From positions 110,234-131,354 of IMG/VR virus record IMGVR_UViG_3300042887_002597: a stretch of 21,121 nt of DNA. One strand, given 5' to 3'. The first letter of the stretch is position 1, and each line of letters begins with the position of its first letter. This document shows, one piece after another, positions 1 to 17,827 of the stretch. The translations under genes were made by a program, and so were the position numbers. The notes beneath the pieces were generated by a model. The model was given only the letters and a program-made list of their open reading frames with translations. It did no database searches and was not told the origin of the DNA. This DNA comes from a virus. Its lineage: Duplodnaviria > Heunggongvirae > Uroviricota > Caudoviricetes.

Positions 1-626
1 ACTGCTGCTAACGAGTTAGGTACTGCACATCCAAGATTATTGTGAGCGTGGAATCCAATAGGTATGTTCACCATCTCTTTCATAATACTAATTCGTATAC
101 TCACATCCGCTGGTAAGTAAGTTCCAGTTGAATCCATTATGATAATAGCTTGTGCACCATAATCCTCCATGATCTTAGCTTGTTGAGCTAATTCTATTGG
201 GCTTATTAAAGCACTCATCATCAATACACCATAAACTTCCTTACCGGTCTTGGCAAGATACTCTATGTGTGATTTAGATAAAGTAGCTTCTGTGCAGTGA
301 GTTGCTACTCGAAACACATCCACACCATAGTCTATAGCAGCCTTAGCATCATCAATAGTTGATAGTCCTGGGATTGTATGAATACCAAGCTTGGAGTTTT
401 TAAGATGCTTCTTAGCTGTAGTGAGCATCTCTTGGTCTGTATTAGGTGACTTGCCTATCAAGAGAGATGATGCAGCCAATCCATTTCCATGTCCTACCTC
501 TACAATAGGAATACCAGCCTTCTCTGCAAACTGACAATACTTTTCTATACTATCTAAACTGATAGTATGCTTTACGCTATGGTTTCCGTCTCTTAGACTA
601 GAGTCTGTTATGATAATGTTGTTCAT
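1..626 (-). CDS. mhpE: 4-hydroxy-2-oxovalerate aldolase (DmpG/MhpE, class II, HMGL-like TIM barrel); 3' end runs off the window
   Basis: Not in the ORF track. Manual translation from ATG at 626 is open to the window edge: MNNIIITDSSLRDGNHSVKH...IVEVGHGNGLAASS...FRVATHCTEA...IIMDSTG...IGFHAHNNLGCAVPNSLAA. It has the LRDG, EVxHGxG, HCTEA and GFHxHNNLG motifs of DmpG. ATGA overlap with the upstream acylating aldehyde dehydrogenase, its usual partner. Confidence 0.95.
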   Translation of the reverse strand, partial: MNNIIITDSSLRDGNHSVKHTISLDSIEKYCQFAEKAGIPIVEVGHGNGLAASSLLIGKSPNTDQEMLTTAKKHLKNSKLGIHTIPGLSTIDDAKAAIDYGVDVFRVATHCTEATLSKSHIEYLAKTGKEVYGVLMMSALISPIELAQQAKIMEDYGAQAIIIMDSTGTYLPADVSIRISIMKEMVNIPIGFHAHNNLGCAVPNSLAA

Positions 627-1483
627 GCTTCTGTTAATTTTTCGGTAACTTTAATTGCTGCACAGTTGATAATATCTAGGTTACCTGCATACGCTGGTAG
701 ATAATCACCTGCTCCTTTCACTTTGATACTCAATACTACAACTCCATTCTCATTCATTGTTGGAGGCAATACTAATTCGTAGTATGGTATGTATGTTTTG
801 AGTTCTTGTATCTTCTCCGTGATCTCCTCTGTTAAGTTTGTAAACTGTATGTCTTTAGTCTTAATGAAGATAGTTGTCTGCATGTCCACACAAGGCTCTG
901 CTGGATTTAGATTCAAGATAACTTTAGTGTTACTGCATCCAGTGAACTTGGTTATAGCTTTCTTTGTTGTTTTAATGTAGTTGTCTACATTGATACGAGT
1001 AGCCATACCAGCACTCTTAGAAGCAATCTGCGATACAATCTCAATGTACTCCAATCCTTTGCAGTGTTTAGATATTAGATGCAGCATAGGCATAGAAGCT
1101 TGTCCGCCACACGTAATCATATTAACATTGTCGTCAGTTAGAATGATATCAGAATTCACATCAGGAACGCACATATCACCTACTTTGGCTGGAGTTAAGT
1201 CTATAACTTTCACTCCTTGCTCTTTGAACACCTTTGCATGTTCCATTGCATCCAATGCACTTGTACAGTCGTACACAACATCACAGCAGTTAGGATTTGC
1301 TTTGAAGTACTCGATACCTTGATCAGACACAAACACTCCTTTCGATTTGGCAATGTTCATTCCATCGGAATCTAATCTACGTCCTACAAAAGCAACTACG
1401 TCTATAAAACCTGACCTTAGTGCTTTGAGTAAGAGATCGGTACCTATATTACCGGTACCAAGGATTGCTGCTTTTATTTTCAT
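623..1483 (-). CDS. mhpF: Acetaldehyde dehydrogenase (acylating), DmpF/MhpF family
   Basis: Rossmann motif AAILGTGNIGTDLL, DLTPA, catalytic-Cys motif NMITCGGQA, SKSAGxATRxNVD, and C-terminal GAGDYLPAYAGNLDII. Adjacent to the DmpG aldolase. Confidence 0.95.
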   Translation of the reverse strand: MKIKAAILGTGNIGTDLLLKALRSGFIDVVAFVGRRLDSDGMNIAKSKGVFVSDQGIEYFKANPNCCDVVYDCTSALDAMEHAKVFKEQGVKVIDLTPAKVGDMCVPDVNSDIILTDDNVNMITCGGQASMPMLHLISKHCKGLEYIEIVSQIASKSAGMATRINVDNYIKTTKKAITKFTGCSNTKVILNLNPAEPCVDMQTTIFIKTKDIQFTNLTEEITEKIQELKTYIPYYELVLPPTMNENGVVVLSIKVKGAGDYLPAYAGNLDIINCAAIKVTEKLTEA

Positions 1484-3231
1484 CTTATTACTAATTTGCT
1501 TCGTTCATTAACACCGGTAATCATAGCTTCTTCTATGTTATTGAGAGGGAGTAATGGTGACATCTCCTCGAGTAGACCAGCCTTAATTGTGTTATCTTGT
1601 TGTTTCATTCCTCTCACCTTTGGTATAAACTCCTGCTCAGGATCCATAAACACCTCCATGATACCACATCCAGGATCATTTATGAAGCTATCCATCTGCT
1701 CTTCTGTATAATACGGAAATTCAAACGCTTTTGCAACTTTTTTATAGTCTGGTAGAGTTACTCCGGTATTTTTATCTACACAAGTCTTGTGTCCTTGGAA
1801 CAACATCTTCTGAGTATGCTTGATCATTAGATACCCATCGTTGTTAAATATGATAATCTTAACTGGTAGGTTGTGTGTCTTAATAGTCTGAAGCTCTTGT
1901 AGGTTCATCATCATACCACCATCGCAGTTAAGACATAGTACTGGTTTGTCTCCGAAGCCTGCTCCTACTGCTGCTGCCAATCCATATCCCATCTCACCCA
2001 ATCCCAAAGACGTGAACATCTTTTGATTAGGCTTTATGTTGAATCCATAGAAGCCACTCAATAGAGCTGTACCCATGTCTGTTACTATTGTGTAGTTGTC
2101 AGGCCATGCTGTTGATAGCTTATCTATGAAAGTGTAAGAGTTAGTTGGATCGGCTAAATGCTCAGGCATTACCAATGGATACTCTTGCTTCATCTTGTTG
2201 CAATAGTCCACCCATGGTTGAATATCCAACTCAATAGATATCTGAAACTCATTAAGTAGTCTTATTAGTGATTTTGCATCTACGTTGTAGTTCTTCCCAT
2301 TAAACTTTCTAGTCTCAGTTGGATCGATATCAACATGGATTATCTCAGCGTTCGGAGCAAAGTCCTTTCTCGAGTATCCAGTTTGCAATAACGACAGCCT
2401 ACTACCCAATACAATAATCAAATCACTATTCTGTACTATGAAGTTGGCAGCACGCTGTCCTTGAACACCAGGTCTTCCAAAGTTGTTTGGATTGTCAGTT
2501 GCTAATAAGTCAACTGCTGACCAGCTTAATACTGTAGGTATTCCATGAGTATCAACGAGCTCTCTAAACTGACTCTCACCACCTGATAGCTTTACTCCAT
2601 GCCCTCCTAAAATTAAAGGACGTTTTGATTCGTTAAGTTTATTGACAATGTACTTAGCTTCTTCGATTGGCTCATCTGGTGAGTATGTGTATTCTGGAAA
2701 GCCACTAAACTCAGTTAGTTGACTTTGTGTATCAAACGGTACTTCTAAGTACACAGGTCCTGGTCTTTTACCATTAGTAATGGCATTAGCGAGCGCTAAG
2801 GTTTCAACTACATTATCTTTAGTAATACGAACAGAGAGCTTAGTGCAATTTTTGTAGGTTTCAACAGAATCATATCCCTGAACTCCGTACATACGCATGT
2901 CACTATACTCTTCAATGTAGTATGTTTGTTCCTGCCCTGCTATGATAATTCCTGGAATAGAGTCTGCCCAGTTGGATAGTATTCCTGTGAATGCATTTGA
3001 TGATCCACCGCCTGCTGTAACTAAAGCTACAGAAAGCTTGCCTGTTGCTCTATAATAAGCTCCCATAGCCATCACAGCTGCTTGTTCGTGATGGGTTGGT
3101 ATAAGTTTAATTTGCTCACATTTACTTAGAGAATCGTAGATGTAGGAATTTGCTGATCCTATAATACCAAAAACTACCTCTATGTTGTTAGCAAGGAGGT
3201 AGTCTCTGATGATGTCGCTGACTTTTACCAT
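1480..3231 (-). CDS. Thiamine-diphosphate-dependent enzyme, acetolactate-synthase-like fold; probable YerE-type sugar carboligase
   Basis: HHEQAA catalytic-Glu motif, TAGGG.SNA, SGKRP-like GKRPGPVYLEVPFD, central FAD-domain-like segment (GSRL, HVDIDP), and ThDP-binding motif CDGGMMMNLQEL...NNDGY. The YerE-type role is inferred from its position between RmlB and DmpF/G. Confidence 0.85.
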   Translation of the reverse strand: MVKVSDIIRDYLLANNIEVVFGIIGSANSYIYDSLSKCEQIKLIPTHHEQAAVMAMGAYYRATGKLSVALVTAGGGSSNAFTGILSNWADSIPGIIIAGQEQTYYIEEYSDMRMYGVQGYDSVETYKNCTKLSVRITKDNVVETLALANAITNGKRPGPVYLEVPFDTQSQLTEFSGFPEYTYSPDEPIEEAKYIVNKLNESKRPLILGGHGVKLSGGESQFRELVDTHGIPTVLSWSAVDLLATDNPNNFGRPGVQGQRAANFIVQNSDLIIVLGSRLSLLQTGYSRKDFAPNAEIIHVDIDPTETRKFNGKNYNVDAKSLIRLLNEFQISIELDIQPWVDYCNKMKQEYPLVMPEHLADPTNSYTFIDKLSTAWPDNYTIVTDMGTALLSGFYGFNIKPNQKMFTSLGLGEMGYGLAAAVGAGFGDKPVLCLNCDGGMMMNLQELQTIKTHNLPVKIIIFNNDGYLMIKHTQKMLFQGHKTCVDKNTGVTLPDYKKVAKAFEFPYYTEEQMDSFINDPGCGIMEVFMDPEQEFIPKVRGMKQQDNTIKAGLLEEMSPLLPLNNIEEAMITGVNERSKLVIR

Positions 3232-4193
3232 ATAAATTTATTCTTGTAATAATCAACTATACTGCTTATTTCTTCATTAAACAACTTTTTAGGTGACCAA
3301 CCTAATGCTTTTATCTTATCATCATCTAAGGCATATCGAACATCTTGTCCTGGTCTATTGCATGAAAAGTCTATGAAGTGATCATCTAGGTAAAAATCAC
3401 CCCAATTCTCTATTTCGATAAACTTACTGATTACCTGCTTTACTGTCTCGATGTTCTGCTGTTCAAAACCACCAGCTACATTGTATATTTCACCAACTTG
3501 TCCTTTCTCAATGAGAGTAATAACAGCTTCTGCAGTATCGTCTGCGTGTAGCCAGTTACGATAAGGAGTTCCATTGTTGTGTAGTGGTATCTTACGACCT
3601 AGATTTAGGCACTTAACTGCTTTTGGTATCAGCTTCTCAACATATTGACCAATTCCGTAGTTGTTGGTTGGTCTGATGATCATATAAGGCACATTGTGAG
3701 TTCTACCCCAAGCCATTACCAACATGTCTGCAGCTGCTTTAGTTGCTGAGTAAGGGTTACTTGGTTTGAGTAGATGATCCTCAGCATGAGCTCCTTCATC
3801 GATATCACCATATACCTCATCTGTACTAAAGTGCAACAGTACTGGCTTCTTAGCGTTCTCACCTCTATGGTTCTTTATCAGCTCCAAAAGGTTATGCACT
3901 CCATCTATATTAGACTTGACAAACTCAGTGCTACTCGCTATAGAGTTTCCAACATGAGTCTCAGCTGCTGTATTGATTACAAAATCACAGTCGTATAGAA
4001 ACTTCAACTCGTTGATATCGCAATGAACAAATGAGAAGTTTGGGTACTTCTTAAACTCTGTCAGCAAATCCTTTCTTGCTGCATAGGTAATCTTATCGAC
4101 TCCTTTTACAAACCATCCCTTCTCTAAACACTTTCTTGTAACGTAGGATCCTATGAAGCCTAGACATCCTGTGACGTAAACTACTTTTTTCAT
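3225..4193 (-). CDS. rmlB: dTDP-glucose 4,6-dehydratase (RmlB/RfbB family SDR)
   Basis: TGCLGFIGS, VDKITYAA, INTAAETHV, catalytic STDEVYG, PYSATK (YxxxK), RPTNNYG...EKLIP, RPGQDVRYALD. Confidence 0.92.
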   Translation of the reverse strand: MKKVVYVTGCLGFIGSYVTRKCLEKGWFVKGVDKITYAARKDLLTEFKKYPNFSFVHCDINELKFLYDCDFVINTAAETHVGNSIASSTEFVKSNIDGVHNLLELIKNHRGENAKKPVLLHFSTDEVYGDIDEGAHAEDHLLKPSNPYSATKAAADMLVMAWGRTHNVPYMIIRPTNNYGIGQYVEKLIPKAVKCLNLGRKIPLHNNGTPYRNWLHADDTAEAVITLIEKGQVGEIYNVAGGFEQQNIETVKQVISKFIEIENWGDFYLDDHFIDFSCNRPGQDVRYALDDDKIKALGWSPKKLFNEEISSIVDYYKNKFIW

Positions 4194-8023: not shown

Positions 8024-8386
8024 TTATATGCTAATATCTCCTATTCCTCTATTCCTTTCAACATTAATTGCAAAAGCCCCTTGTGCTCCGTCTGGCTTAG
8101 TGTCATTTATCAAATATCGAACTCCACCACCAACACCCATGATAAGTTGATCGTAGACTATGCCTGCTTCTTGAAGCTGTCTCTCGGTTTGTGTACGAGA
8201 ACCTTCTCGTCGTCCGGTAATTAAAATTATATTATAACCACAACGATCCCACTCCATAAGCTTTTCAAGAGTGCCATCTAACACAGTCATTTTGTAATTT
8301 GGATTCTGTGTTGTAGTGGGTAGCTCATGTTGAACGAGTGTACCATCAATATCACAGAGTATGGTTTTAGGCCTAGTATCTATCAT
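8024..8386 (-). CDS. Small capless HAD-superfamily phosphatase
   Basis: Motif I ILCDIDGTL (DxDGT), motif II LITGR, YDQLIMG, and a motif IV-like LIND. The 120-aa size matches capless HADs found in polysaccharide loci (BcbF/EcbF-like). Confidence 0.85.
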   Translation of the reverse strand: MIDTRPKTILCDIDGTLVQHELPTTTQNPNYKMTVLDGTLEKLMEWDRCGYNIILITGRREGSRTQTERQLQEAGIVYDQLIMGVGGGVRYLINDTKPDGAQGAFAINVERNRGIGDISI

Positions 8387-9516
8387 AAAAATATAGCGTT
8401 AGAGTTGATTGTAGTTAGTATTTGGTTCTTAATCTCGTTATTGTAGAAACCGGCTTTTAGTATTACTAAAGGAGCTTGTGTCTGCTTTAGTATTTGTGGA
8501 GATTCTACAACTAAGCTTGTGCCATACAATCGCTTACCCTGCTTTAAAGGATCGTTATCTAGTATACAAACAATCTTACTCTCATCTAATCCAAACTGCA
8601 ATAGATATTGTGCAAATATATGGGCTCCAAATAAATAAACAGGCTGTCCAGTCTCTCTTATTGCTAAGTTTAGTGAGTCTACAAGCTGCAGATGGTAGTC
8701 TATATACTGCTGAAAGGTTGCTTTTGTCTCAGAATATAGATTTTTTTTGATTAGAGAGTTGTTGTTATTTGTTCTGCGAGCGCAAAAGAAGATGCTGTGG
8801 TCATCTTTGAAGTATTCTCGCTCTATTAGCTCAAACTTATGCTCCTCAAGTAGTTGTGTCACAAAATCCTCGCTAGCGTAGTAAGTGTGCTCAAAGTTAA
8901 GGCAGTTAGTATACTTATTTTCCAGCATCCTTTTAATATTTGGAACTGAGAATATTACTAGAGAGTCTTCTTGCATAAAGGCTGCTTTGTTTCGCATAAA
9001 CTGTTGAGGATCGTAGAGATGCTCCATTACGTGTGAATGTACTATGGCACCATACTGCCTGCCAGGATCAAAAGTCTCATCAAACCATCCTCTAATTACC
9101 GTAGCTCTTATACTCTCATCTACTCGTGGATTAGGTTCAATAATCGTCCAATCCAATTTACTGTTTGCATTCAAGCATTTCTTAGCAAGATGACCATGCA
9201 AACCGCCTATTTCCAGAACACTACCAACATTGTACTTATTTACAAAAGCTGCAAATGCCTCATGATGCTCATCCCATAATCCTCCAACAGTGCCAGATCC
9301 GTGATCTTCTGCATATACCACTTCTAATGGTAGTAGTGGGTTAAGCTGTATCATACCCGATGCTGGGCTTATATACCAACTCATCTCTGCCTTTTGGTCT
9401 AAGCTAGAATCTTGGGTAGTGCATCCCATGAACACTGGGAAGCTGGGAAAGCTATATAGGTGCTCTAAACCATCAGTATTCGTTATAATATCTCTATTTC
9501 GCTGTATGTAGTTCAT
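8383..9516 (-). CDS. Class I SAM-dependent methyltransferase with NDP-sugar C-methyltransferase-like architecture
   Basis: SAM motif VLEIGGLHGHL, HSHVMEHLYDP, FSVPN, NFEHTYY, and a C-terminal domain VYLFGA...CILDNDPLKQGKRLYGT...VILKAGFYNNEI resembling the C-methyltransferase C-terminal domain. Confidence 0.8.
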   Translation of the reverse strand: MNYIQRNRDIITNTDGLEHLYSFPSFPVFMGCTTQDSSLDQKAEMSWYISPASGMIQLNPLLPLEVVYAEDHGSGTVGGLWDEHHEAFAAFVNKYNVGSVLEIGGLHGHLAKKCLNANSKLDWTIIEPNPRVDESIRATVIRGWFDETFDPGRQYGAIVHSHVMEHLYDPQQFMRNKAAFMQEDSLVIFSVPNIKRMLENKYTNCLNFEHTYYASEDFVTQLLEEHKFELIEREYFKDDHSIFFCARRTNNNNSLIKKNLYSETKATFQQYIDYHLQLVDSLNLAIRETGQPVYLFGAHIFAQYLLQFGLDESKIVCILDNDPLKQGKRLYGTSLVVESPQILKQTQAPLVILKAGFYNNEIKNQILTTINSNAIFL

Positions 9517-10480
9517 TTAATTTTAATTTTACTATACGTTTAACCGTATCATCAATGTGAGAATATTGATTTTTTATTGGAAGGAACTCTGGTGTGGATA
9601 TTATGTAGTGACCACAAATCTTTATCAAATCTGATTTACTTGTAGTAGGATCAAAATTAGGATCAACCCACTTCTCCCATTTTTTGGAGTCATAGCAAAT
9701 TTGCCAAAACTTTTGGAAAAGATCGCTACCTTCTTGGATACTATCCAAATAAGCCTGTGTCTCCATTAAACCAAACTCAGGCGCTATGTTAATGCTATCT
9801 AAGCCTAGATTAAACTTCTCCTGCACAATATGGGCTGGAATATAATCTCCGTTGTGTTCCTTTGAGAGGACTTTGTGTTTTTTTGCTACCGCAATCATAT
9901 CCAGTAGACGCTGGCTATCGTATTCTCCGGTCTGATTGTTTCCCTTCAAGGATGTACCAGATTGAATAACAAGGTAGGTTATCTGATTAAAAACCTCAGG
10001 CTTCAATAATACCTTTAACCTAGCCATCAATTCATCCAACTCAGAGGCTTCAAACCTTCTTATAGCTTCTTCTGTACTTACCTCATATTGTATATGAGGA
10101 TTCAAATTGTAACAATATTCGATCATCTCAACTGTCTCTTTTAATCCTAAGTCAAAAGCAGGGTACTTTTTCCAAGGATCAATGTGGATTAAGTCTAGGT
10201 ATTTGCAGTCCTCTGATAAGGATTGATACCCATCATCATCTGATTGACCTTGCCCAGGACCTGAATGATCTCTCTTTATGATTACGTTGCTGGATTTAGA
10301 CTTAACATACTCGCTAAAGTCCTTAGTAGTCCAGTTGTTAACATACCCACCATCCCACTCTACTTGCCTTCTTGATGGAATCAATCCGATTGGCATTCCA
10401 GTTTCATTGCTGAAGTCAATTATACCATCAACGACGTTCTTCGTCATTGGTCCTATAAAAATTCTTGGTTTTTTATTCAT
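9494..10480 (-). CDS. GatZ/KbaZ-like TIM-barrel protein (tagatose-6-phosphate 4-epimerase-like family)
   Basis: PSRRQVEWDGGY, RDHSGPG (cf. GatZ GDHLGP), IHIDP, VIQSGT (cf. VVQPG), KEHNGDY (cf. EAHSTDY), NIAPEF (cf. KVGPAL). Recognised from remembered motifs. Confidence 0.65.
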   Translation of the reverse strand: MNKKPRIFIGPMTKNVVDGIIDFSNETGMPIGLIPSRRQVEWDGGYVNNWTTKDFSEYVKSKSSNVIIKRDHSGPGQGQSDDDGYQSLSEDCKYLDLIHIDPWKKYPAFDLGLKETVEMIEYCYNLNPHIQYEVSTEEAIRRFEASELDELMARLKVLLKPEVFNQITYLVIQSGTSLKGNNQTGEYDSQRLLDMIAVAKKHKVLSKEHNGDYIPAHIVQEKFNLGLDSINIAPEFGLMETQAYLDSIQEGSDLFQKFWQICYDSKKWEKWVDPNFDPTTSKSDLIKICGHYIISTPEFLPIKNQYSHIDDTVKRIVKLKLNELHTAK

Positions 10481-11091
10481 ATGTACTTAATGTAAAGTTT
10501 ATATTGCTCTTCGGCTTGTAGTCTTGCTAAGATCTTACCTTCTTGTGTAAAAGGTCTTCCGTCTATTAACCTACCTTTAGTAATAACATCCATTGGAGTA
10601 GCATTGAATATATAACCCTCCAACTCCCCAACAGCACTCCACTCAGATCGACCTATAACTTGGTATGGAATACCGAGCTTGTTGCATGCAAACTGGGCTG
10701 CCTTACTAAAACCTCCGTTACCTACTATACTCAGAAACTTTGGTTTCTCCAACATTAAGTAATTGTAGATTGCGTACCAATCTGTATTATATCCTCTAAG
10801 AGTTCCATTCTCGTTTACTACTGTATTACATGATTGTATTAGGTGTACATCCTCGCTAACCTCATCTATGCAGTTTATGATATCAAACTTAAAGGGCATG
10901 CTAACAGCAAAACCTCCAAAGCCTAAAGTTCTAGCACTTTCTACCGATTTAACGATATTATCGCTATAAAAGGACTTGTATATAGCATTGATGTTGTTAC
11001 GTACAAAAAGCTCATTAAAAAAAGTACACCCGTTGTTACCAGGTGCACTTGAAAAAGAGCCATAAATTTTAGTATCTTTATTTATTAACAT
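10477..11091 (-). CDS. Shikimate-dehydrogenase-like protein, SdhL (H. influenzae HI0607-type) subfamily, compact
   Basis: N-terminus MLINKDTKIYGSFSSAPGNNG resembles SdhL MINKDTQLCMSLSGRPSNFG. It also has AVSMPFK (catalytic Lys), SCNTVVN, GYNTD (catalytic Asp), IVGNGGFSKAA, FNATP and QAEEQYKLY. Confidence 0.85.
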   Translation of the reverse strand: MLINKDTKIYGSFSSAPGNNGCTFFNELFVRNNINAIYKSFYSDNIVKSVESARTLGFGGFAVSMPFKFDIINCIDEVSEDVHLIQSCNTVVNENGTLRGYNTDWYAIYNYLMLEKPKFLSIVGNGGFSKAAQFACNKLGIPYQVIGRSEWSAVGELEGYIFNATPMDVITKGRLIDGRPFTQEGKILARLQAEEQYKLYIKYI

Positions 11092-12997
11092 CTGTCAACA
11101 TTTGTACGCTTTTAAACCATAATAATTTTGCAAAAACATCACTATGTAGTGGTGACATATTTAAGAAAATAATTGCCGTTAGTGTCTTTACTTTATTTAG
11201 GTCAAATCCTGCATCTACTATCCATTGTTCGTATACCGATTTGAATTTATGTAGATTAGGTAATGTGTCGTGCTCAAACTGAACAAAGGAAAGGCCTTCT
11301 GTGTATCGAATGAATCGATCATCCTTAGCTAAGTTGTATGGTATTATACAGCCTCCATAAAGTTTAGCTAAGTCGTAGTATATGTCACCACCTTCAACAC
11401 AACCACCAAAGGACTCTCTCCAATCTATATATGTAAATCTTTCGTCGCTATCTGTGCTATGGATTATGTTGTCGAATTGAAGATCACCATGAAACATATC
11501 ATAGGTTGGATTATTGTGGAATTGTTGTAAATCTACAGTACTCAACACATCTTTAAGTGGTGGATAGTTGACACCATTGATTGTGTATGGTTCGGTATAG
11601 TATCGCTCTCCGAATCTATCAACAAAAGCGGTTCTACGCTTTTCGGTTTTAGTCACATAAAACTCATCAAATACACTAGCATCTAAAACTATTCTCGATG
11701 AATTAGTTATTAAGCTCTTCAAAAAAGTTAGAAATTTTGTGTACAAGGCCAATGAGTCTTTTTCATACAAAGTCGAACCCTCAATCCAGTCGTATGAAAT
11801 AAAATGCAATGTATTTTTAAAGTTACTTGGAGTGACTTTTTTCAGTATTGCTGCTCTCTTTGCTTTATTTGCAACTACGTTTGTATCCGCATCAAACTTC
11901 AAAAACTTATTAGTTCGATACACTACTTCATGATTAAGCTTTTGCAACGATAAAGGTCTATCATTGAAATGATCCTTAGCCTTACTTAAATCGTCCAGAT
12001 TTCCGGTATCGAGCCATTTTGGACGTTTAGCTTTAAGGCTAGGATATTTTGATGGATTACTAAAAGCAGCTACCACTTCACCACTCTTCATATTTAACCG
12101 CAATTCTGACCAAAAAACCTCATAATCCCAAATACCAGCCAATCCAATAAAGGCTTCTGCGTATCCATTATCTGACTTGTTTAGAAAATTAGTCACATTG
12201 TCGTGTTCATCTACTTGCGCTGTAGAGTATTTTTCTGGATAACTTGTAGGCGTTACGCCAATCCAATTTCCATCTATGAAGGGCATATCTGAGTCAATGA
12301 GACAGTCAGCTGTTGTTAAGTAAAAGGGTCGTTGTAAAAGCTCTGAGCATTGTAATGCTGAATACCCAGGACCGCTTCCTTCTCCATCATACTGCTCTAT
12401 TTCCACAAATTTGAATTTTCGATCAGGGTGAGCTAAGTTGCAGTACTCTCTTATTGAATCGCCTTTGTATCCTAAAGCTACAACAATGTCATAATTAACT
12501 GGAAACTTCTCCACTATATGAGATATTACAGCTTTGTTGTTGATTGGCACTAGAGCTTTATTGGCATGCTTAGTCAATGACTCGAGCCTAGTACCCAAGC
12601 CTGCTGCTAATACCAATACTGCAGGCGTCTTATGTTCACCATCTATCTTACCATCCTTTCTATTAGCATCATCTTCGATTCTAATAACATCGTCTACTTC
12701 TGGCGTTGATACCTCCTGCAATATTATATCAGTTAAAGCTATTACTCTATGCTTTTTTGGTGGAGTTACGTTGAAATAATCACCAGCATGCATTATTTTC
12801 TTCTCAACCACTCCTTCGTCATTCTCCAACCACACTTCAGCTGTACCCTCTATAATGTAATTAGTCTCACGCTTTTTTTCGTGGTACTGGTAACTAGTCT
12901 TGTACCCAGCGTTGATATATATGCGTTTGTAGCAATAGCTCTCATTAAGCTCTAACCACACCTCCTTGCCCCATGGCTTATGTACTTCCTTACTCAT
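11078..12997 (-). CDS. Three-domain fusion: cupin (type II PMI-like) + nucleotidyltransferase + APH/choline-kinase-like phosphotransferase
   Basis: aa ~1-115: KPWG, KRI, SYQYH, KRETNYIIEG, KKHR, DDVIRIEDD. aa ~125-345: VLAAGLGTRL...KALVPINNK, LTTADCL. aa ~355-639: FHGDLQFDNII, YIDWR, GDIYYDLAKL. Confidence 0.88.
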   Translation of the reverse strand: MSKEVHKPWGKEVWLELNESYCYKRIYINAGYKTSYQYHEKKRETNYIIEGTAEVWLENDEGVVEKKIMHAGDYFNVTPPKKHRVIALTDIILQEVSTPEVDDVIRIEDDANRKDGKIDGEHKTPAVLVLAAGLGTRLESLTKHANKALVPINNKAVISHIVEKFPVNYDIVVALGYKGDSIREYCNLAHPDRKFKFVEIEQYDGEGSGPGYSALQCSELLQRPFYLTTADCLIDSDMPFIDGNWIGVTPTSYPEKYSTAQVDEHDNVTNFLNKSDNGYAEAFIGLAGIWDYEVFWSELRLNMKSGEVVAAFSNPSKYPSLKAKRPKWLDTGNLDDLSKAKDHFNDRPLSLQKLNHEVVYRTNKFLKFDADTNVVANKAKRAAILKKVTPSNFKNTLHFISYDWIEGSTLYEKDSLALYTKFLTFLKSLITNSSRIVLDASVFDEFYVTKTEKRRTAFVDRFGERYYTEPYTINGVNYPPLKDVLSTVDLQQFHNNPTYDMFHGDLQFDNIIHSTDSDERFTYIDWRESFGGCVEGGDIYYDLAKLYGGCIIPYNLAKDDRFIRYTEGLSFVQFEHDTLPNLHKFKSVYEQWIVDAGFDLNKVKTLTAIIFLNMSPLHSDVFAKLLWFKSVQMLTDVNK

Positions 12998-13950
12998 AAT
13001 TTAAAAAAGCGTTTACAATTACATTTTTCTCTGAAGAAGTTAATGGTCTCTTCGTTAAACCAATTTGTTTTAAAGTCGTTAATATACTCATTGAAGTCTG
13101 CCAATGGACGTCCTCCTATACCCTCAACAAAGTGAAAACACTTAATCTGCTTGTGGTCGTGTGTGAATAATTTATCATCCTTTACGTACCATCTATGTAT
13201 TGGCGATAGCTCACCATCTACCAATCCTTGCGATATTAACCACTGCGGATTAAAGCCATGTATGTTGTGTGGGTAGCAGTTCTCGAGCCTACCTTTCTTT
13301 ATCATGTTTGTTCTCGGCACACCTTTAGCTCTTACGTTGTAGGATACCTCACTAAGTGGATATGGCCCATCAACAACTTGTACCTCGAAAGATTTATCTG
13401 CCCAAGCTAACTCATTTAAGCCACCCTGAATAGAGAAGTAGCCATAGTGATCAATGCTTAGTTCAATCACCTTACTTAATGCTTCGTGACTATTAAAGCA
13501 AACAACATCAGCATTCACATTCATATGCTCCAATACCTTTGATCCATCAGGTAAGCTTACCTCAACAATAGGTGACTGCCAGTGTTCTGTAGCTTCTTGA
13601 ATATAGTAGTTAAGGGTTGCTAATACTGGTGTAGTATCGTTATCTAAGAACTCGTCTAATCTTCCACATACTATGGTATCTGATCCAAGTATAATAACCT
13701 TCTCATAATTGTGCTTGCGCATAATTTCGTAAGCGTATATGTATTGCATCAAAAAGGTTTCTGGTGCATACTCGTAATACTGCAAATCTGCATTATATTG
13801 CTCTTGATTGGTGTAATCGATTTGATAATAGTCACACTCCTCTCCATTGAAGGTTAGGAAGCTATTCCTGACATTATCAACTAACTCATCGTAGCGATCA
13901 TCGGTGTAAAACACCACACACGCTGTCTTTTTTGTTTTATTCATGTTCAT
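12994..13950 (-). CDS. Probable GT-A-fold (GT8-like) glycosyltransferase; alternative start at 13944
   Basis: KVIILGSDTIVCGRLDEFL resembles GT8 xLDxDxIVxxxLDELF with a degenerate DxD. Also NADVVCFN, QGGLN and a late HF. Confidence 0.55.
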   Translation of the reverse strand: MNMNKTKKTACVVFYTDDRYDELVDNVRNSFLTFNGEECDYYQIDYTNQEQYNADLQYYEYAPETFLMQYIYAYEIMRKHNYEKVIILGSDTIVCGRLDEFLDNDTTPVLATLNYYIQEATEHWQSPIVEVSLPDGSKVLEHMNVNADVVCFNSHEALSKVIELSIDHYGYFSIQGGLNELAWADKSFEVQVVDGPYPLSEVSYNVRAKGVPRTNMIKKGRLENCYPHNIHGFNPQWLISQGLVDGELSPIHRWYVKDDKLFTHDHKQIKCFHFVEGIGGRPLADFNEYINDFKTNWFNEETINFFREKCNCKRFFKL

Positions 13951-14632
13951 TACTTATTAAACTTGTATCTGTTGGCAGTGCTCGTAGTTGATCTGCATCT
14001 CTTTGCATAGGCTCAACTTCATACCCATGCGATTTATATAAATCATATAGTGATAACCGCTCCGACGCTATGTGTAATATAGGTGTACTACTGTATTGTA
14101 TGTTCTTTATTATTCTCGTAGCTGCCTCCTCCAAAAAGTACTTAGAACTATATTGATCTGCAAAAGCTTTGGTATATATCTTACGTACAAATGGTGCTCT
14201 TATTATTTGGTAGTTAGGTAGTGTTGATACAATGTATTCGGATGCAGCTTTTGTTTTACCGTACACGTTCTTAGGATTCAATCTATCATCTACTGTGTAG
14301 AAACCTCTTTCTCCCCCAAAAACATACTCTGATGAAATATAAACAAATTTACAATCCAATCCAACACTAGCTCTCACCAAGTTGGCTGTTCCAATTACAT
14401 TCACTTGTATGGCGTATGCCTTATCCTGCTCACATCCAAAGGTATCTACAAACGCAGCTGCGTGTATTACGATACTAGGCTTGAACTCTTGTACTATGGT
14501 ATGTACGCAGTTGTAATCCGTAATATCGCACACATCGCTTCCTGGTGCGTATACGTTCCACTCTTTAGGAATCTTCTTGTGGAGAGCAGTACCTAAAGCA
14601 CCACTTCCTCCTGTGATAAGGACATTAACCAT
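13937..14632 (-). CDS. RmlD-like NAD(P)-dependent NDP-4-keto-sugar reductase (short, 231 aa)
   Basis: NVLITGGSGALG, VIHAAAF, VNVIGTANL, YISSEYVF, PKNVYGKTK (YxxxK). Start revised from the track's 14656 to the ATG at 14632 (MVNVLITGG), which gives an 8-nt overlap like other junctions here. Confidence 0.85.
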   Translation of the reverse strand: MVNVLITGGSGALGTALHKKIPKEWNVYAPGSDVCDITDYNCVHTIVQEFKPSIVIHAAAFVDTFGCEQDKAYAIQVNVIGTANLVRASVGLDCKFVYISSEYVFGGERGFYTVDDRLNPKNVYGKTKAASEYIVSTLPNYQIIRAPFVRKIYTKAFADQYSSKYFLEEAATRIIKNIQYSSTPILHIASERLSLYDLYKSHGYEVEPMQRDADQLRALPTDTSLISNEHE

Positions 14633-15692
14633 GCATTTGTTCGTTAATCCACTCATACGTTCTTCTCACTCCTTCTTTAAGTGGCAAGCTTGGTTCCCAT
14701 CCTACTTTCTCCTTAAAGAGCTTGTTATCTGAGTTCCTTCCTCTAACTCCTACGGGACATTTAAAGCCGTATTTAGCTCTAAACTCTTCACCATCAATGT
14801 TTTTAACATAAGCTCGCTTGTTAGCGACCTCAATAGCCATTTCTGCTAACTGGTTAATAGTAACCATTTCTTCCGAGCCAATGTTAACAGGACCTAAAAA
14901 CTCATCTTGTCTCATAAAGCGAATAACGGCTTCTATACACTCATCTATGTAAAGGAACGATCTCGTTTGTTGTCCATCTCCCCATACTTCAATCTCATCA
15001 TCCATCAAGGAGTCAGCTACTTTACGACACATAGCTGCTGGTGCTTTTTCCTTTCCTCCATGCCAAGTACCATAAGGTCCAAATATGTTGTGGAACCTAG
15101 CTACCCTAACATCAAGATTGTAGTTTCGATTAAAGGCTAAGTACAACCTCTCGCTAAACAACTTTTCCCAACCATACTCCGAATCTGGATTAGCTGGATA
15201 TGCACTAGATTCCTCACAATTTGGGTTATCGGGATCTAGTTGATTGTGCTCTGGGTACATACATGCTGATGAGCTGTAGAATACACGCTTAGCTTTTTGC
15301 TCTACAGCTTCTTTAGCAACATTAAGGTTAATTAGAGCTGAGTTATGCATTACATTAGCATCATTCTCTCCTGTGAAGATGTAACCAGCTCCACCCATGT
15401 CAGCTGCTAATTGATAAACCTCATCGAAATGAATATGCTTAACAAATGGTCTAGGAGAGTTGTATTCATACTTTAAAGGATGTACACCGTCATTGGACTC
15501 TATTAAAAAGGCGTTTTTAACTACTCGAGGATCTCTCAAGTCTCCTATAATAAAGTCATCAGCTGCCGTTTCCCAATGCTCTGGATGCTTTAAATCGACT
15601 CCACGAACCCAGTATCCCTCTGACTTTAGACGTTTTACTAAGTGCGAGCCAATAAAACCTCCAGCACCTAATACTAATGCAGTTTTTTTCAT
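14625..15692 (-). CDS. GDP-mannose 3,5-epimerase (GME)-like extended SDR
   Basis: GAGGFIGSHL, QLAADMGGAGYI, catalytic Cys in SSSACMYP, YGWEK (YxxxK), RFHNIFGP, catalytic Lys in GKEKAPAAMCRK, WGDGQQTRSF, GVRGRNSDN. Confidence 0.9.
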   Translation of the reverse strand: MKKTALVLGAGGFIGSHLVKRLKSEGYWVRGVDLKHPEHWETAADDFIIGDLRDPRVVKNAFLIESNDGVHPLKYEYNSPRPFVKHIHFDEVYQLAADMGGAGYIFTGENDANVMHNSALINLNVAKEAVEQKAKRVFYSSSACMYPEHNQLDPDNPNCEESSAYPANPDSEYGWEKLFSERLYLAFNRNYNLDVRVARFHNIFGPYGTWHGGKEKAPAAMCRKVADSLMDDEIEVWGDGQQTRSFLYIDECIEAVIRFMRQDEFLGPVNIGSEEMVTINQLAEMAIEVANKRAYVKNIDGEEFRAKYGFKCPVGVRGRNSDNKLFKEKVGWEPSLPLKEGVRRTYEWINEQMHG

Positions 15693-15701
15693 ATACTATT
15701 G

Positions 15702-16682
15702 TTATTTTTCTAATATACTCAAAATGGAACGAATAAACAACTCTTTATTATAGTGCAATTTGTAATTCTCCTGAGCTATCTTGCTGCAATGTGAGTAAAA
15801 AGCATCGTCTTCTGCTAATCTCTTAGCGAGAGTTCTTGCTTGCTCCAAGTCATGTACATCAACAGCTAAGTCTGGGTGGCATATATTTTGGGTATCTACT
15901 TGTTTGTTTCCTATGCAAGGTATTCCGAAGTATGCACAATTTAGACTAAAGGTTCCTGCCGCTACTGTTGGCATTAAGTGAACCGCATACTTGAAGGAGC
16001 TCAACTGCTTCATCCAATCTGTCCAGAGCACTCGCGGTAAGTGATTAATTAGCTGATCTTCACCGTCTCTCATTGCATGGGAAGTTTGTCCCCATATAGG
16101 AACATTAAACTCTTGGGCTATCATATAGCTCTCAAAGCCTCCATACCATCTTGCGAAGTTACCTCCTACGATAGCTTTATCTTCCGGTTGTGGTTTGATA
16201 CCTTCTACAATAGCGTCTATCATTAGAGTAGGCATACAACCTACAGGTTTGTTTGGAAACATTCCTTGATAGTACTTTGTGTCTGATTGGTTGTGTGCAA
16301 AAATACCATCACAACTTGCAATCATATTATAGAAGTTTATCTGATCCGCTAGCTCGTAGTCGTTGAACCACCAATGAGGCCCTTCTTGCATGTAAAACAC
16401 CTTGGTGTTGGTCAATTTTAGCTTTCCAACTAAGTCGTGTGAGAGTATTTCAGATACTGGGTTCTGTTCTTGTGTTAATCTCGAACCACATGCATCTAAG
16501 AATACCCTACCTTTAGGGAAGATAACTACTACAGCATCATACCCCACTACGTCGTGGGGATTATGAATGTTGTAGTGCGTAGCGTCGAGAGCGTGCATCC
16601 AAGCAAACTCTGTTCTCATATTGGAATGATTCGCAGGAACCTTTCCAATAAAGCCCATTTCAGTTAGAAATGCTATTTTCAT
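15702..16682 (-). CDS. Hypothetical protein, probable GT-B-fold glycosyltransferase
   Basis: N-terminal KIAFLTE strand. C-terminal YAVHLMPTVAAGTFSLNCAYFGIPCIG resembles the GT-B nucleotide-binding helix motif (GTxxxExxxxGxPxI) and is followed by the typical LxxD...Y terminal helices. Confidence 0.6.
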   Translation of the reverse strand: MKIAFLTEMGFIGKVPANHSNMRTEFAWMHALDATHYNIHNPHDVVGYDAVVVIFPKGRVFLDACGSRLTQEQNPVSEILSHDLVGKLKLTNTKVFYMQEGPHWWFNDYELADQINFYNMIASCDGIFAHNQSDTKYYQGMFPNKPVGCMPTLMIDAIVEGIKPQPEDKAIVGGNFARWYGGFESYMIAQEFNVPIWGQTSHAMRDGEDQLINHLPRVLWTDWMKQLSSFKYAVHLMPTVAAGTFSLNCAYFGIPCIGNKQVDTQNICHPDLAVDVHDLEQARTLAKRLAEDDAFYSHCSKIAQENYKLHYNKELFIRSILSILEK

Positions 16683-17827
16683 TTAGCAAAGAACTCTTTA
16701 ATCTTATCACAAACGTAGTCAACGTCTTCGATGGTCATTCCATGGTGAGCTCCTAATAAGAATCCATTCTTCATAATTGCATCTGAGTTATCAAATGGTT
16801 GTAGGTACTCTCTATAAACTGGGTGACGGGTTACGTTACCGGCAAAGGTTACACGAGTTTGGATACTATTGTCTTCCAAGAAGGTTAGCAACTCTAATCG
16901 TCTCTCTGTCTGCAACGGAATAGCTAACCAATTTGGTTGGATGCTATCATCTGGTAAGATTAACTCTTTTACATCCTTCAAGTTCTCAAGATAGCGTTCA
17001 ATGTTAGCTCGACGAGTATCTTTGTAAGTCTCGAAGCGCTCTAACTGTACTAAGCCAAATGCTGCACTCATCTCACTGCACTTCATGTTATAACCTAATA
17101 CTCCATAAAGGAACTTGTGATCGTAAGGAATGCCATCTACTTTATGGTTAAAGCGATCGTCCATGATCTCTGAGTTGTCTCCAATACGTCCCCAATCACG
17201 ATACTGTAATGCTCTCTCCACATGCTTCTTGTCGTTAAACATAACCATACCACCAGTACCACCTGCTGTGATAATGTGACTTGCATAGAAGCTAGTAGTC
17301 GCTACATCAGTCTCTTCTGTGTAGGTGATTGTATCTGCAGAGTCTTCGATTACATAAATGTCTGTACGACCTATACGCTCAAGTTCAGCTCGCAAAGATG
17401 CCCAATCAGGTTTGTTACCAATAAGGTTGGGTACCATAATTGCTTTTGTATCGCTATCGATTGCAGCAATAATATCAGCTACAGTTGGTACATAGGAAGT
17501 TAATCCTACATCAACAAATACTGGCTTGTATCCTAATTGAATGATCGGTGCTAATGTTGTTGAGAATGTACATGCTGGTGTAATCACTTTACATCCTTTT
17601 GGAAGGTCTAGTGCTGCTAATGCTAGTAAGCAAGCTGATGATCCAGAATTAACGAATACACCATACTTCTTACCAAAGCGCTTTGCAATCTTCTCTTCAA
17701 ACTCAATTGAACGAGGTCCAAATCCAGCTAACCAACCGTCTCGTAAGCAGGCTTCAACTGCCTTGATTTCCTCTTCCCCATAAGATTCAAACTTATTAGG
17801 GGCATACCATACTTTTCTTGTACTCAT
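16679..17827 (-). CDS. DegT/DnrJ/EryC1/StrS-family PLP enzyme, His-type NDP-4-keto-6-deoxyhexose 3-dehydratase (E1/RfbH- or ColD-like)
   Basis: VNSGSSA, PACTFSTT, EDSAD, SFYASHIIT with His at the Schiff-base Lys position, RDWGR, YDHKF, LGYNMK, and TRVTFAGNVTRHP as in E1/RfbH. The Fe-S cysteines are absent. Confidence 0.85.
   Translation of the reverse strand: MSTRKVWYAPNKFESYGEEEIKAVEACLRDGWLAGFGPRSIEFEEKIAKRFGKKYGVFVNSGSSACLLALAALDLPKGCKVITPACTFSTTLAPIIQLGYKPVFVDVGLTSYVPTVADIIAAIDSDTKAIMVPNLIGNKPDWASLRAELERIGRTDIYVIEDSADTITYTEETDVATTSFYASHIITAGGTGGMVMFNDKKHVERALQYRDWGRIGDNSEIMDDRFNHKVDGIPYDHKFLYGVLGYNMKCSEMSAAFGLVQLERFETYKDTRRANIERYLENLKDVKELILPDDSIQPNWLAIPLQTERRLELLTFLEDNSIQTRVTFAGNVTRHPVYREYLQPFDNSDAIMKNGFLLGAHHGMTIEDVDYVCDKIKEFFAK

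Follow-up and report, generated by a model that had tools for sequence, protein, structure and literature searches.

Synthesis of cytidine diphosphate (CDP)-yersiniose A in Yersinia pseudotuberculosis depends on YerE, which uses thiamine diphosphate (ThDP) to add a decarboxylated 2-oxo acid to C4 of a nucleotide-linked 4-keto-3,6-dideoxyhexose, followed by reduction of the side chain in the YerE/YerF system. The donor of YerE is pyruvate, so that the branch is C2, and neither an aldolase nor a dehydrogenase accompanies the enzyme as a partner. In Pectobacterium atrosepticum SCRI1043, the gene cluster described by Steitz et al. in 2022 encodes the ThDP enzyme ErwE and the reductase ErwF together with the BphI-like ErwI and the BphJ-like ErwJ (PMC9306805). 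In the route deduced for this bacterium, which has been partly tested, ErwJ provides acetaldehyde out of acetyl-CoA, ErwI turns it into a hydroxy-oxo acid, ErwE places this onto CDP-4-keto-3,6-dideoxyglucose and reduction of the side chain by ErwF yields erwiniose with its C4 branch (PMC9306805). ErwE has been shown to couple 4-hydroxy-2-oxopentanoate to an analogue of the keto-sugar, preferring the (R) acid and rejecting pyruvate (PMC9306805). JanthE from Janthinobacterium sp. HH01 (structures 8rph, 8rpi and 8rpj; PMC12188165) is another YerE-like carboligase; it takes ketones as well as various 2-oxo acids, among them 4-hydroxy-2-oxovalerate (PMC12188165, PMC12247030). Here, a stretch of 21,121 nucleotides, bases 110234-131354 of the 131354-base viral record IMGVR_UViG_3300042887_002597 and referred to as the window in the following, is compared with these systems. 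To judge from sequence comparison, window positions 1-4193 probably encode the central part of an erwiniose-type pathway by which an uncultured T4-like phage would make an acyl-branched sugar.

The phage locus resembles the erwiniose cluster in combining a YerE-like ThDP enzyme and an aldolase/dehydrogenase pair with a glycosyltransferase, a candidate reductase and the genes that a 4-keto-3,6-dideoxyhexose requires, and the predicted product has the same C10 skeleton. It differs in that the bacterium follows a CDP-based route with the 3-dehydrase E1 and the reductase E3, whereas the phage has an RmlB-type entry and an iron-sulfur-free 3-dehydratase with neither cytidylyltransferase nor E3, in its short candidate reductase of 256 amino acids (aa), and in that the carrier organism is a virus. 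The name erwiniose-type thus seems justified, but not erwiniose itself, since nucleotide carrier, stereochemistry and donor preference are only predicted.

The core operon in a T4-like phage

The core genes are transcribed in the order RmlB-like nucleoside diphosphate (NDP)-glucose 4,6-dehydratase, ThDP carboligase, acylating acetaldehyde dehydrogenase, aldolase, 256-aa short-chain dehydrogenase/reductase (SDR) and GT2 glycosyltransferase, the last two being encoded in the neighbouring DNA of the same record past the window start (L002; Table 1). The aldolase gene is cut by the edge of the window rather than by a contig end and is complete in L002. As read from the sequence, the RmlB-like and ThDP genes meet in ATGGTAA, and the ThDP/dehydrogenase and dehydrogenase/aldolase junctions are both ATGA; 4-base overlaps also connect the aldolase with the SDR and the SDR with the GT2 gene. 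Because stop and start codons overlap at these junctions, the four core genes are taken to be translationally coupled, and the coupled order rmlB, ThDP enzyme, mhpF and mhpE, proposed in the original prediction, is borne out by the junctions as well as by the family scores. ThDP enzyme, dehydrogenase and aldolase are consecutive, and the acceptor-sugar genes lie in the same strand block, although their subtypes differ from those of the CDP route in bacteria; the minus strand holds all long open reading frames (ORFs) of the window.

The same 131-kb record encodes a T4 gp23-type major capsid protein (PF07068, 251 bits) and a large terminase (PF03237, 47 bits). On the strength of these two proteins it belongs to a T4-like phage, which settles the earlier suspicion of a viral locus. 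Among five related viral records with the same module, four likewise carry gp23; these are 150-167 kb long and 93-100% complete, and one of them has terminal repeats.

A JanthE-like carboligase

The ThDP enzyme contains all three TPP_enzyme domains, and its closest solved relative is JanthE (8rph), which it matches over the full length (residues 2-582) with an E value of 3e-141 and 475 bits; PpYerE (5ahk) comes second with 255 bits. Phage enzyme and JanthE have in common the ThDP-binding motif CDG, located inside an identical stretch of 15 residues (NCDGGMMMNLQELQT), and according to the alignment the JanthE hot-spot residues Tyr297 and Lys567 also appear conserved, with the numbering offset by one. 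By these sequence features the phage enzyme is JanthE-like, with the rare CDG motif in place of GDG, even though JanthE is bacterial and the phage enzyme falls into a separate viral clade. An identity as acetolactate synthase was considered and rejected because the equivalog models (IlvB/IlvI/IlvG) all remain far below their cut-offs, the best of them with 304 bits (cut-off 738) and 295 bits (cut-off 538). The enzyme is instead predicted to decarboxylate 4-hydroxy-2-oxopentanoate and to add the resulting acyl unit to C4 of a keto-sugar.

When GenBank phages were searched with the ThDP enzyme, the best matches were ordinary acetolactate synthases of about 31% identity, many on host-contaminated records, and no isolated phage in the GenBank phage collection carries the module. 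In the library of papers searched, nothing relevant was found that connects phages or giant viruses with yersiniose or YerE-like enzymes.

A dehydrogenase/aldolase pair and the altered specificity signature of the aldolase

The dehydrogenase encoded behind the carboligase scores 329 bits with TIGR03215 (cut-off 282) and keeps the catalytic cysteine, Cys125 in ITCGGQA, in alignment with the solved enzymes; it is predicted to reduce acetyl-CoA to acetaldehyde. The full-length aldolase scores 336 bits with TIGR03217 (cut-off 286), contains the DmpG communication domain PF07836, and retains Arg12, Asp13 and His16 as well as the metal ligands His193 and His195. With DmpG/DmpF, BphI/BphJ and HsaF/HsaG the phage pair therefore shares the fold, the metal and pyruvate ligands, the catalytic cysteine, the communication domain and scores above the equivalog cut-offs, whereas it is only ~36-41% identical to them, is found in a sugar rather than a meta-cleavage context and has His/Phe for Leu87/Tyr290. 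The synthetic direction is predicted for the phage pair because the surrounding genes point to sugar synthesis rather than meta-cleavage.

In BphI, C4 of the substrate lies between Leu87 and Tyr290, which impose the (4S) configuration, the variants L87N/Y290F and L87W/Y290F being (4R)-specific, while Leu89 sets the length of the aldehyde (PMC3962088). The phage aldolase has His83, Ile85 and Phe284 where BphI has Leu87, Leu89 and Tyr290, and so lacks the catabolic (4S) pair. His occupies the Leu87 position in 144 of 144 ThDP-linked aldolases, Ile or Met the position of Leu89, and none has Tyr at position 290, which is Phe except for His in 16 viral sequences and a gap in one. By its loss of Leu87/Tyr290, the phage aldolase can be classed as a distinct subfamily of the DmpG/BphI fold. 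For comparison, a sample of 151 alphaproteobacterial genomes was used, in which all ten catabolic-type aldolases (555-581 bits) show Leu/Leu/Tyr and lack a ThDP gene within the ±1.5 kb of flanking DNA fetched; two further aldolases at ~385 bits show His/Ile-or-Met/Phe. One of these two, a His/Met/Phe aldolase encoded together with its dehydrogenase in an alphaproteobacterial genome (G133; L194:5484-10788), is 1.6 kb away from a ThDP enzyme with the canonical GDG motif. This ThDP enzyme shares only 31% identity with that of the phage and may be related to the ErwE/YerE type. As the aldolase in this case adjoins a GDG-type enzyme, the His/Phe signature would seem to track the sugar-branching role and not one ThDP subtype.

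The replacement of Leu87/Tyr290 by His/Phe, together with the preference of ErwE for the (R) acid, suggests that the ThDP-linked aldolases are natural (4R) synthases making (4R)-4-hydroxy-2-oxopentanoate. Five bacterial genomes with the module also speak for an anabolic role, as each has a single aldolase above the TIGR03217 cut-off and this aldolase adjoins the ThDP gene. Among the five is the 1.3-Mb genome of the beta proteobacterium KB13 (L136 / L165), a streamlined methylotroph with a cassette of ThDP enzyme, dehydrogenase and aldolase.

Linkage across related loci

A search with the ThDP enzyme gave 102 viral and 213 bacterial relatives, of which 78 loci on viral contigs and 80 in bacterial genomes were kept, and a partner gene was counted if a homologue lay within 10 kb of the ThDP gene. 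An acetaldehyde dehydrogenase is found in 72/78 viral and 76/80 cellular loci, an aldolase in 69/78 and 75/80, and an RmlB-like or related 4,6-dehydratase, usually directly upstream in the viral loci, in 70/78 and 57/80. DegT-family partners occur in 61/78 viral and 59/80 cellular loci, and 60 of the viral and 53 of the cellular proteins have His where the lysine would be. Where at least 3 kb is available on both sides of the ThDP gene, dehydrogenase and aldolase are both present in 55/60 viral and 57/59 cellular loci, an arrangement far beyond chance. The association of mhpEF with ThDP and sugar genes, which the original prediction had named as a test of itself, therefore holds within this clade. 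Usually, dehydrogenase and aldolase lie on the same strand as the ThDP gene, the aldolase being on the opposite strand in 26 viral loci.

Measured against the window proteins, the identity of the ThDP enzyme rises and falls with that of its two partners, r being 0.89 for the dehydrogenase and 0.91 for the aldolase, but is not correlated with that of the 3-dehydratase (r 0.07). That the dehydratase does not track the core suggests its exchange as a module; next to the same core, a short cysteine-free dehydratase is found in 29 viral loci, and in 31 there is a long E1-like enzyme whose insertion contains 3-5 cysteines. In Flavobacterium hercynium, the module stands within a canonical CDP-3,6-dideoxyhexose set consisting of an E3-like reductase, the glucose-1-phosphate cytidylyltransferase RfbF, the CDP-glucose 4,6-dehydratase RfbG and RfbH (703 bits). 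In four short contigs labelled GVMAG and binned as giant-virus genomes (L044, L048, L050 and L053), the genes of the module are arranged differently and the aldolase is encoded on the other strand; their 3-dehydratase is 65% identical to that of the window and their 4,6-dehydratase is a different one.

Sugar dehydratases and nucleotide carrier

The RmlB-like protein scores 296 bits with TIGR01181, under the equivalog cut-off of 365, compared with 68 and 43 bits for the CDP- and guanosine diphosphate (GDP)-type dehydratase models, and its best solved relatives are all deoxythymidine diphosphate (dTDP)-glucose 4,6-dehydratases. The nucleotide carrier is therefore probably dTDP. Neither a cytidylyltransferase nor an E3 is found on the phage, and the only nucleotidyltransferase domain of the record is part of a 639-aa fusion belonging to a separate module; as no dedicated nucleotidyltransferase is seen, the NDP-glucose is probably supplied by the host.

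The protein encoded at 16679-17827 aligns best with E1 (3bcx), at 203 bits as against 126 for ColD. Its His184 stands opposite His220 of E1, the residue exchanged for Lys in the H220K mutant (3bb8), at the position of the Schiff-base lysine of aminotransferases; the His-type 3-dehydratase that had been read into this gene from the outset is upheld by this alignment. The cysteine-rich iron-sulfur insertion of E1 is absent, the aligned region being free of cysteine, the phage protein is about 55 residues shorter than E1, and the RfbH model NF011936 gives 260 bits against a cut-off of 423. In terms of sequence this is a His-type 3-dehydratase lacking the iron-sulfur site. Since that site is missing, it would probably act in the manner of ColD, with no need for an E3 reductase. 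His in place of the Schiff-base lysine is shared with both ColD (GDP-4-keto-6-deoxymannose 3-dehydratase) and E1 (CDP-6-deoxy-L-threo-D-glycero-4-hexulose 3-dehydrase), whereas the substrate of the phage enzyme is probably a dTDP sugar rather than a GDP or CDP sugar. Orthologues with 79-87% identity are found in 29 related viral loci.

Candidate side-chain reductase, transferase and probable acceptor

As C4 would become a tertiary alcohol in the ThDP step, the side-chain carbonyl would be the only ketone left for a reductase. The 256-aa SDR has the motifs GxxGxxG and YxxxK, and its structural model (predicted local distance difference test score, pLDDT, 91.5) shows the extended-SDR fold of NDP-sugar reductases/epimerases. 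It is present in 56/78 viral loci, usually directly behind the aldolase, as against 1/80 cellular loci, and is a better candidate for the side-chain reductase than the RmlD-like gene at 13937-14656. This latter gene had been assigned the role originally; its ORF is real and on the minus strand, but the product is truncated, matching no more than the N-terminal 60% of RmlD, and has an orthologue in none of the 78 related viral loci, so that it is rejected as the prime side-chain reductase and may belong to a separate deoxysugar branch. The GDP-fucose-synthase-like SDR was likewise set aside, its matches in cellular loci being generic, only 22-25% identical and not conserved in position.

Among the 24 proteins of the island the maximum 19-residue Kyte-Doolittle mean is 1.58, none reaching the strength of a membrane helix, and no flippase, polymerase or priming transferase is found. 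Because all of these are lacking, assembly in the cytoplasm on a soluble acceptor is probable. Virion proteins are the most plausible acceptor, although this is speculation and the weakest step of the scheme.

Proposed pathway and alternatives

In the pathway proposed here, the RmlB-like enzyme would convert NDP-glucose, probably dTDP-glucose, to NDP-4-keto-6-deoxyglucose, from which the 3-dehydratase would strip the C3 hydroxyl, probably in a ColD-like reaction with glutamate, to give an NDP-4-keto-3,6-dideoxyhexose. In parallel, the dehydrogenase would reduce acetyl-CoA and hand the acetaldehyde to the aldolase, which would condense it with pyruvate to 4-hydroxy-2-oxopentanoate, (4R) being predicted from His83/Phe284. 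The ThDP enzyme would then decarboxylate this acid and put a 3-hydroxybutanoyl unit on C4 of the keto-sugar, leaving a tertiary alcohol, the 256-aa SDR would reduce the side-chain ketone to complete a C10 erwiniose-type sugar, and the adjacent GT2 would transfer it. The DmpF/G-like pair working in the synthetic direction and a 3-hydroxybutanoyl transfer to C4, both central to the original prediction, constitute the best-supported reading, since they fit the linkage, the aldolase signature, the His-type dehydratase and the published erwiniose work (PMC9306805); the C10 skeleton that the prediction attributed to erwiniose is likewise correct (PMC9306805).

Several points weigh against this pathway. 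JanthE, unlike ErwE, is not restricted in its donors and takes pyruvate as well as further 2-oxo acids (PMC12188165), so that a shorter or longer branch is conceivable. The (4R) prediction leans on engineered BphI variants with Asn or Trp, not His, at position 87. The loci were picked by similarity to the ThDP enzyme with search patterns that include the CDG motif, which restricts the linkage figures to this clade. The 3-dehydratase is separated by 12.5 kb from the core, adjoins the GDP-fucose-synthase-like SDR, and could instead or also serve a colitose-like pathway. Finally, likeness to ErwE, ErwF, ErwI and ErwJ is judged from published descriptions of these proteins.

One group of alternatives concerns the length of the branch. 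If the ThDP enzyme added a C2 acetyl unit from pyruvate, as in yersiniose, with dehydrogenase and aldolase acting afterwards or serving another purpose, this would accord with the acceptance of pyruvate by JanthE, the closest characterised relative (PMC12188165, PMC12247030), and with YerE and pyruvate as the founding example of C4-branching chemistry (PMC9306805). It would leave unexplained why dehydrogenase and aldolase nearly always adjoin the ThDP gene and co-evolve with it, pyruvate being a central metabolite; moreover, ErwE has the same gene partners and rejects pyruvate (PMC9306805), and in the active site of the phage aldolase the pyruvate and metal ligands are retained while the substitutions fall precisely on the positions facing the product's C4. 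A yersiniose-type branch is thus improbable. Somewhat less so, though still unlikely, is the same logic applied to another aldehyde, propionyl-CoA or a further acyl-CoA leading to a branch of C5 or more, or to another configuration, and hence to a new sugar. BphI-type aldolases take aldehydes of varied length, which is set by position 89 (PMC3962088), here Ile or Met; in addition, ErwE converts 4-hydroxy-2-oxohexanoate better than the pentanoate, 76% as against 49% (PMC9306805), and the viral enzymes form a clade apart from the cellular ones. Ile and Met are, however, near Leu in size, long aldehydes being favoured by exchange of Leu for Ala (PMC3962088), and acetyl-CoA is by far the most abundant acyl-CoA of the cell.

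Automatic annotation gives acetolactate synthase, acetaldehyde dehydrogenase and 4-hydroxy-2-oxovalerate aldolase, from which one might read a set of ilvB-, mhpF- and mhpE-like auxiliary metabolic genes that reprogramme central or aromatic catabolism of the host and have nothing to do with sugars. With the equivalog scores for acetolactate synthase as low as given above, a sugar dehydratase coupled upstream and an SDR and GT2 downstream, no meta-cleavage genes seen nearby, and an aldolase without the Leu/Tyr pair of all catabolic members examined, this catabolic reading is very improbable indeed and was discarded on the grounds of equivalog scores, coupling to sugar genes and aldolase residues.

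Neighbouring genes

The coordinates of the core genes and of their neighbours are collected in Table 1. The 319-aa protein next to the RmlB-like gene has no match in Pfam and NCBIfam scans, loose thresholds included; a language model places it near hypothetical proteins of viruses as well as near GT8-like or nucleotide-diphospho-sugar transferases, and orthologues lie between the RmlB-like and ThDP genes in two related loci (L035 and L077). It is possibly a GT-A-type glycosyltransferase, which is a lead only. For the remaining window ORFs without a name, Pfam and NCBIfam scans at loose thresholds yielded nothing usable.

Table 1. Predicted genes of the branched-sugar core and associated genes. 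Coordinates are window positions unless preceded by L002, the adjoining DNA of the same record.
Feature	Length	Coordinates	Strand	Family or remark
RmlB-like NDP-glucose 4,6-dehydratase	322 aa	3225..4193	-	TIGR01181
JanthE-like (YerE-like) ThDP carboligase	583 aa	1480..3231	-	three TPP_enzyme domains
Acylating acetaldehyde dehydrogenase, DmpF/BphJ/ErwJ type	286 aa	623..1483	-	TIGR03215
Class II pyruvate aldolase, DmpG/BphI/ErwI type	N-terminal 208 residues in window	3..626	-	HMGL-type; TIGR03217
Complete aldolase	332 aa	L002:11862-12860	-	TIGR03217 and DmpG communication domain
SDR	256 aa	L002:11095-11865	-	outside window, coupled behind aldolase
GT2	426 aa	L002:9818-11098	-	outside window, coupled behind SDR
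Protein without name, next to RmlB-like gene	319 aa	4190..5149	-	possible GT-A-type glycosyltransferase
Truncated RmlD-like SDR	239 aa	13937..14656	-	RmlD positions 2-148 of 285
GDP-fucose-synthase-like SDR	355 aa	14625-15692	-	adjoins RmlD-like SDR
His-type NDP-4-keto-6-deoxyhexose 3-dehydratase, dependent on pyridoxamine/pyridoxal phosphate (PMP/PLP)	382 aa	16679..17827	-	DegT family

The two SDRs at 13937-14656 and 14625-15692 adjoin the His-type 3-dehydratase and a 326-aa protein without name. The layout is of the colitose type, as a ColD-type dehydratase is followed by a fucose-synthase-like reductase, and a plain 3,6-dideoxyhexose derived from the shared keto intermediate may be a further product of the island. 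At window positions 8024-12997, another module of closely coupled genes encodes a cupin-nucleotidyltransferase fusion, a shikimate-dehydrogenase-like protein, a protein without name, a C-methyltransferase and a HAD phosphatase, and is probably a separate sugar or polyol pathway; in L035, orthologues of the whole set adjoin the branched-sugar core. A UvdE-type UV damage endonuclease (L002:6485-7399, minus strand, 193 bits) is encoded ~5 kb past the window start, just downstream of the glycan island.

Evolution of the viral carboligases

In a FastTree phylogeny of 158 ThDP enzymes, midpoint-rooted for drawing only, a deep branch with support 100 divides 74 viral sequences and one from a 6.6-kb contig of a metagenome-assembled genome (MAG) from 79 cellular and four viral sequences. 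Identity on the viral side goes down to about 45-50%, and a few contigs binned as giant-virus MAGs are included. The window enzyme is 40-46% identical to cellular ones, with the exception of 59% to that of L081. L081 is the 6.6-kb contig, binned in an Ignavibacteria MAG, whose ThDP enzyme groups with the viral clade; it is probably a mis-binned phage fragment. Since the window enzyme is distant from, and not nested among, the sequences of Bacteroidota, the presumed host phylum, it does not represent a recent capture from that phylum.

A bolder and decidedly tentative proposal goes beyond the pathway itself. The separate ThDP clade, the RmlB-type entry, the iron-sulfur-free 3-dehydratase and the virus-specific short reductase could mark a pathway that viruses have long kept as their own, with soluble transferases putting the C4-branched higher sugar on virion proteins; no sugar with a branched chain would have been known from a viral glycan before. 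In addition, His/Phe could be a natural counterpart of the stereo-inversion engineered in BphI, marking anabolic (4R)-hydroxy-oxo-acid synthases in general.

Implications

The chemistry as such has been known from bacteria since 2022 (PMC9306805); what is new is a distinct and widespread viral version of it. The viral enzymes constitute new and diverse ThDP carboligases forming tertiary alcohols and are of practical interest for biocatalysis, as are the paired aldolases, which, judging by their active-site residues, are probably opposite in stereopreference to the known catabolic ones. Genes that automatic annotation presents as amino-acid or carbon auxiliary metabolic genes in viral metagenomes are, in this case, better read as glycan genes. 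With more than 100 viral contigs carrying relatives of the ThDP enzyme, complete T4-like genomes of 150-167 kb among them, the pathway would point to rare and immunologically distinctive sugars in the glycans of freshwater viruses.

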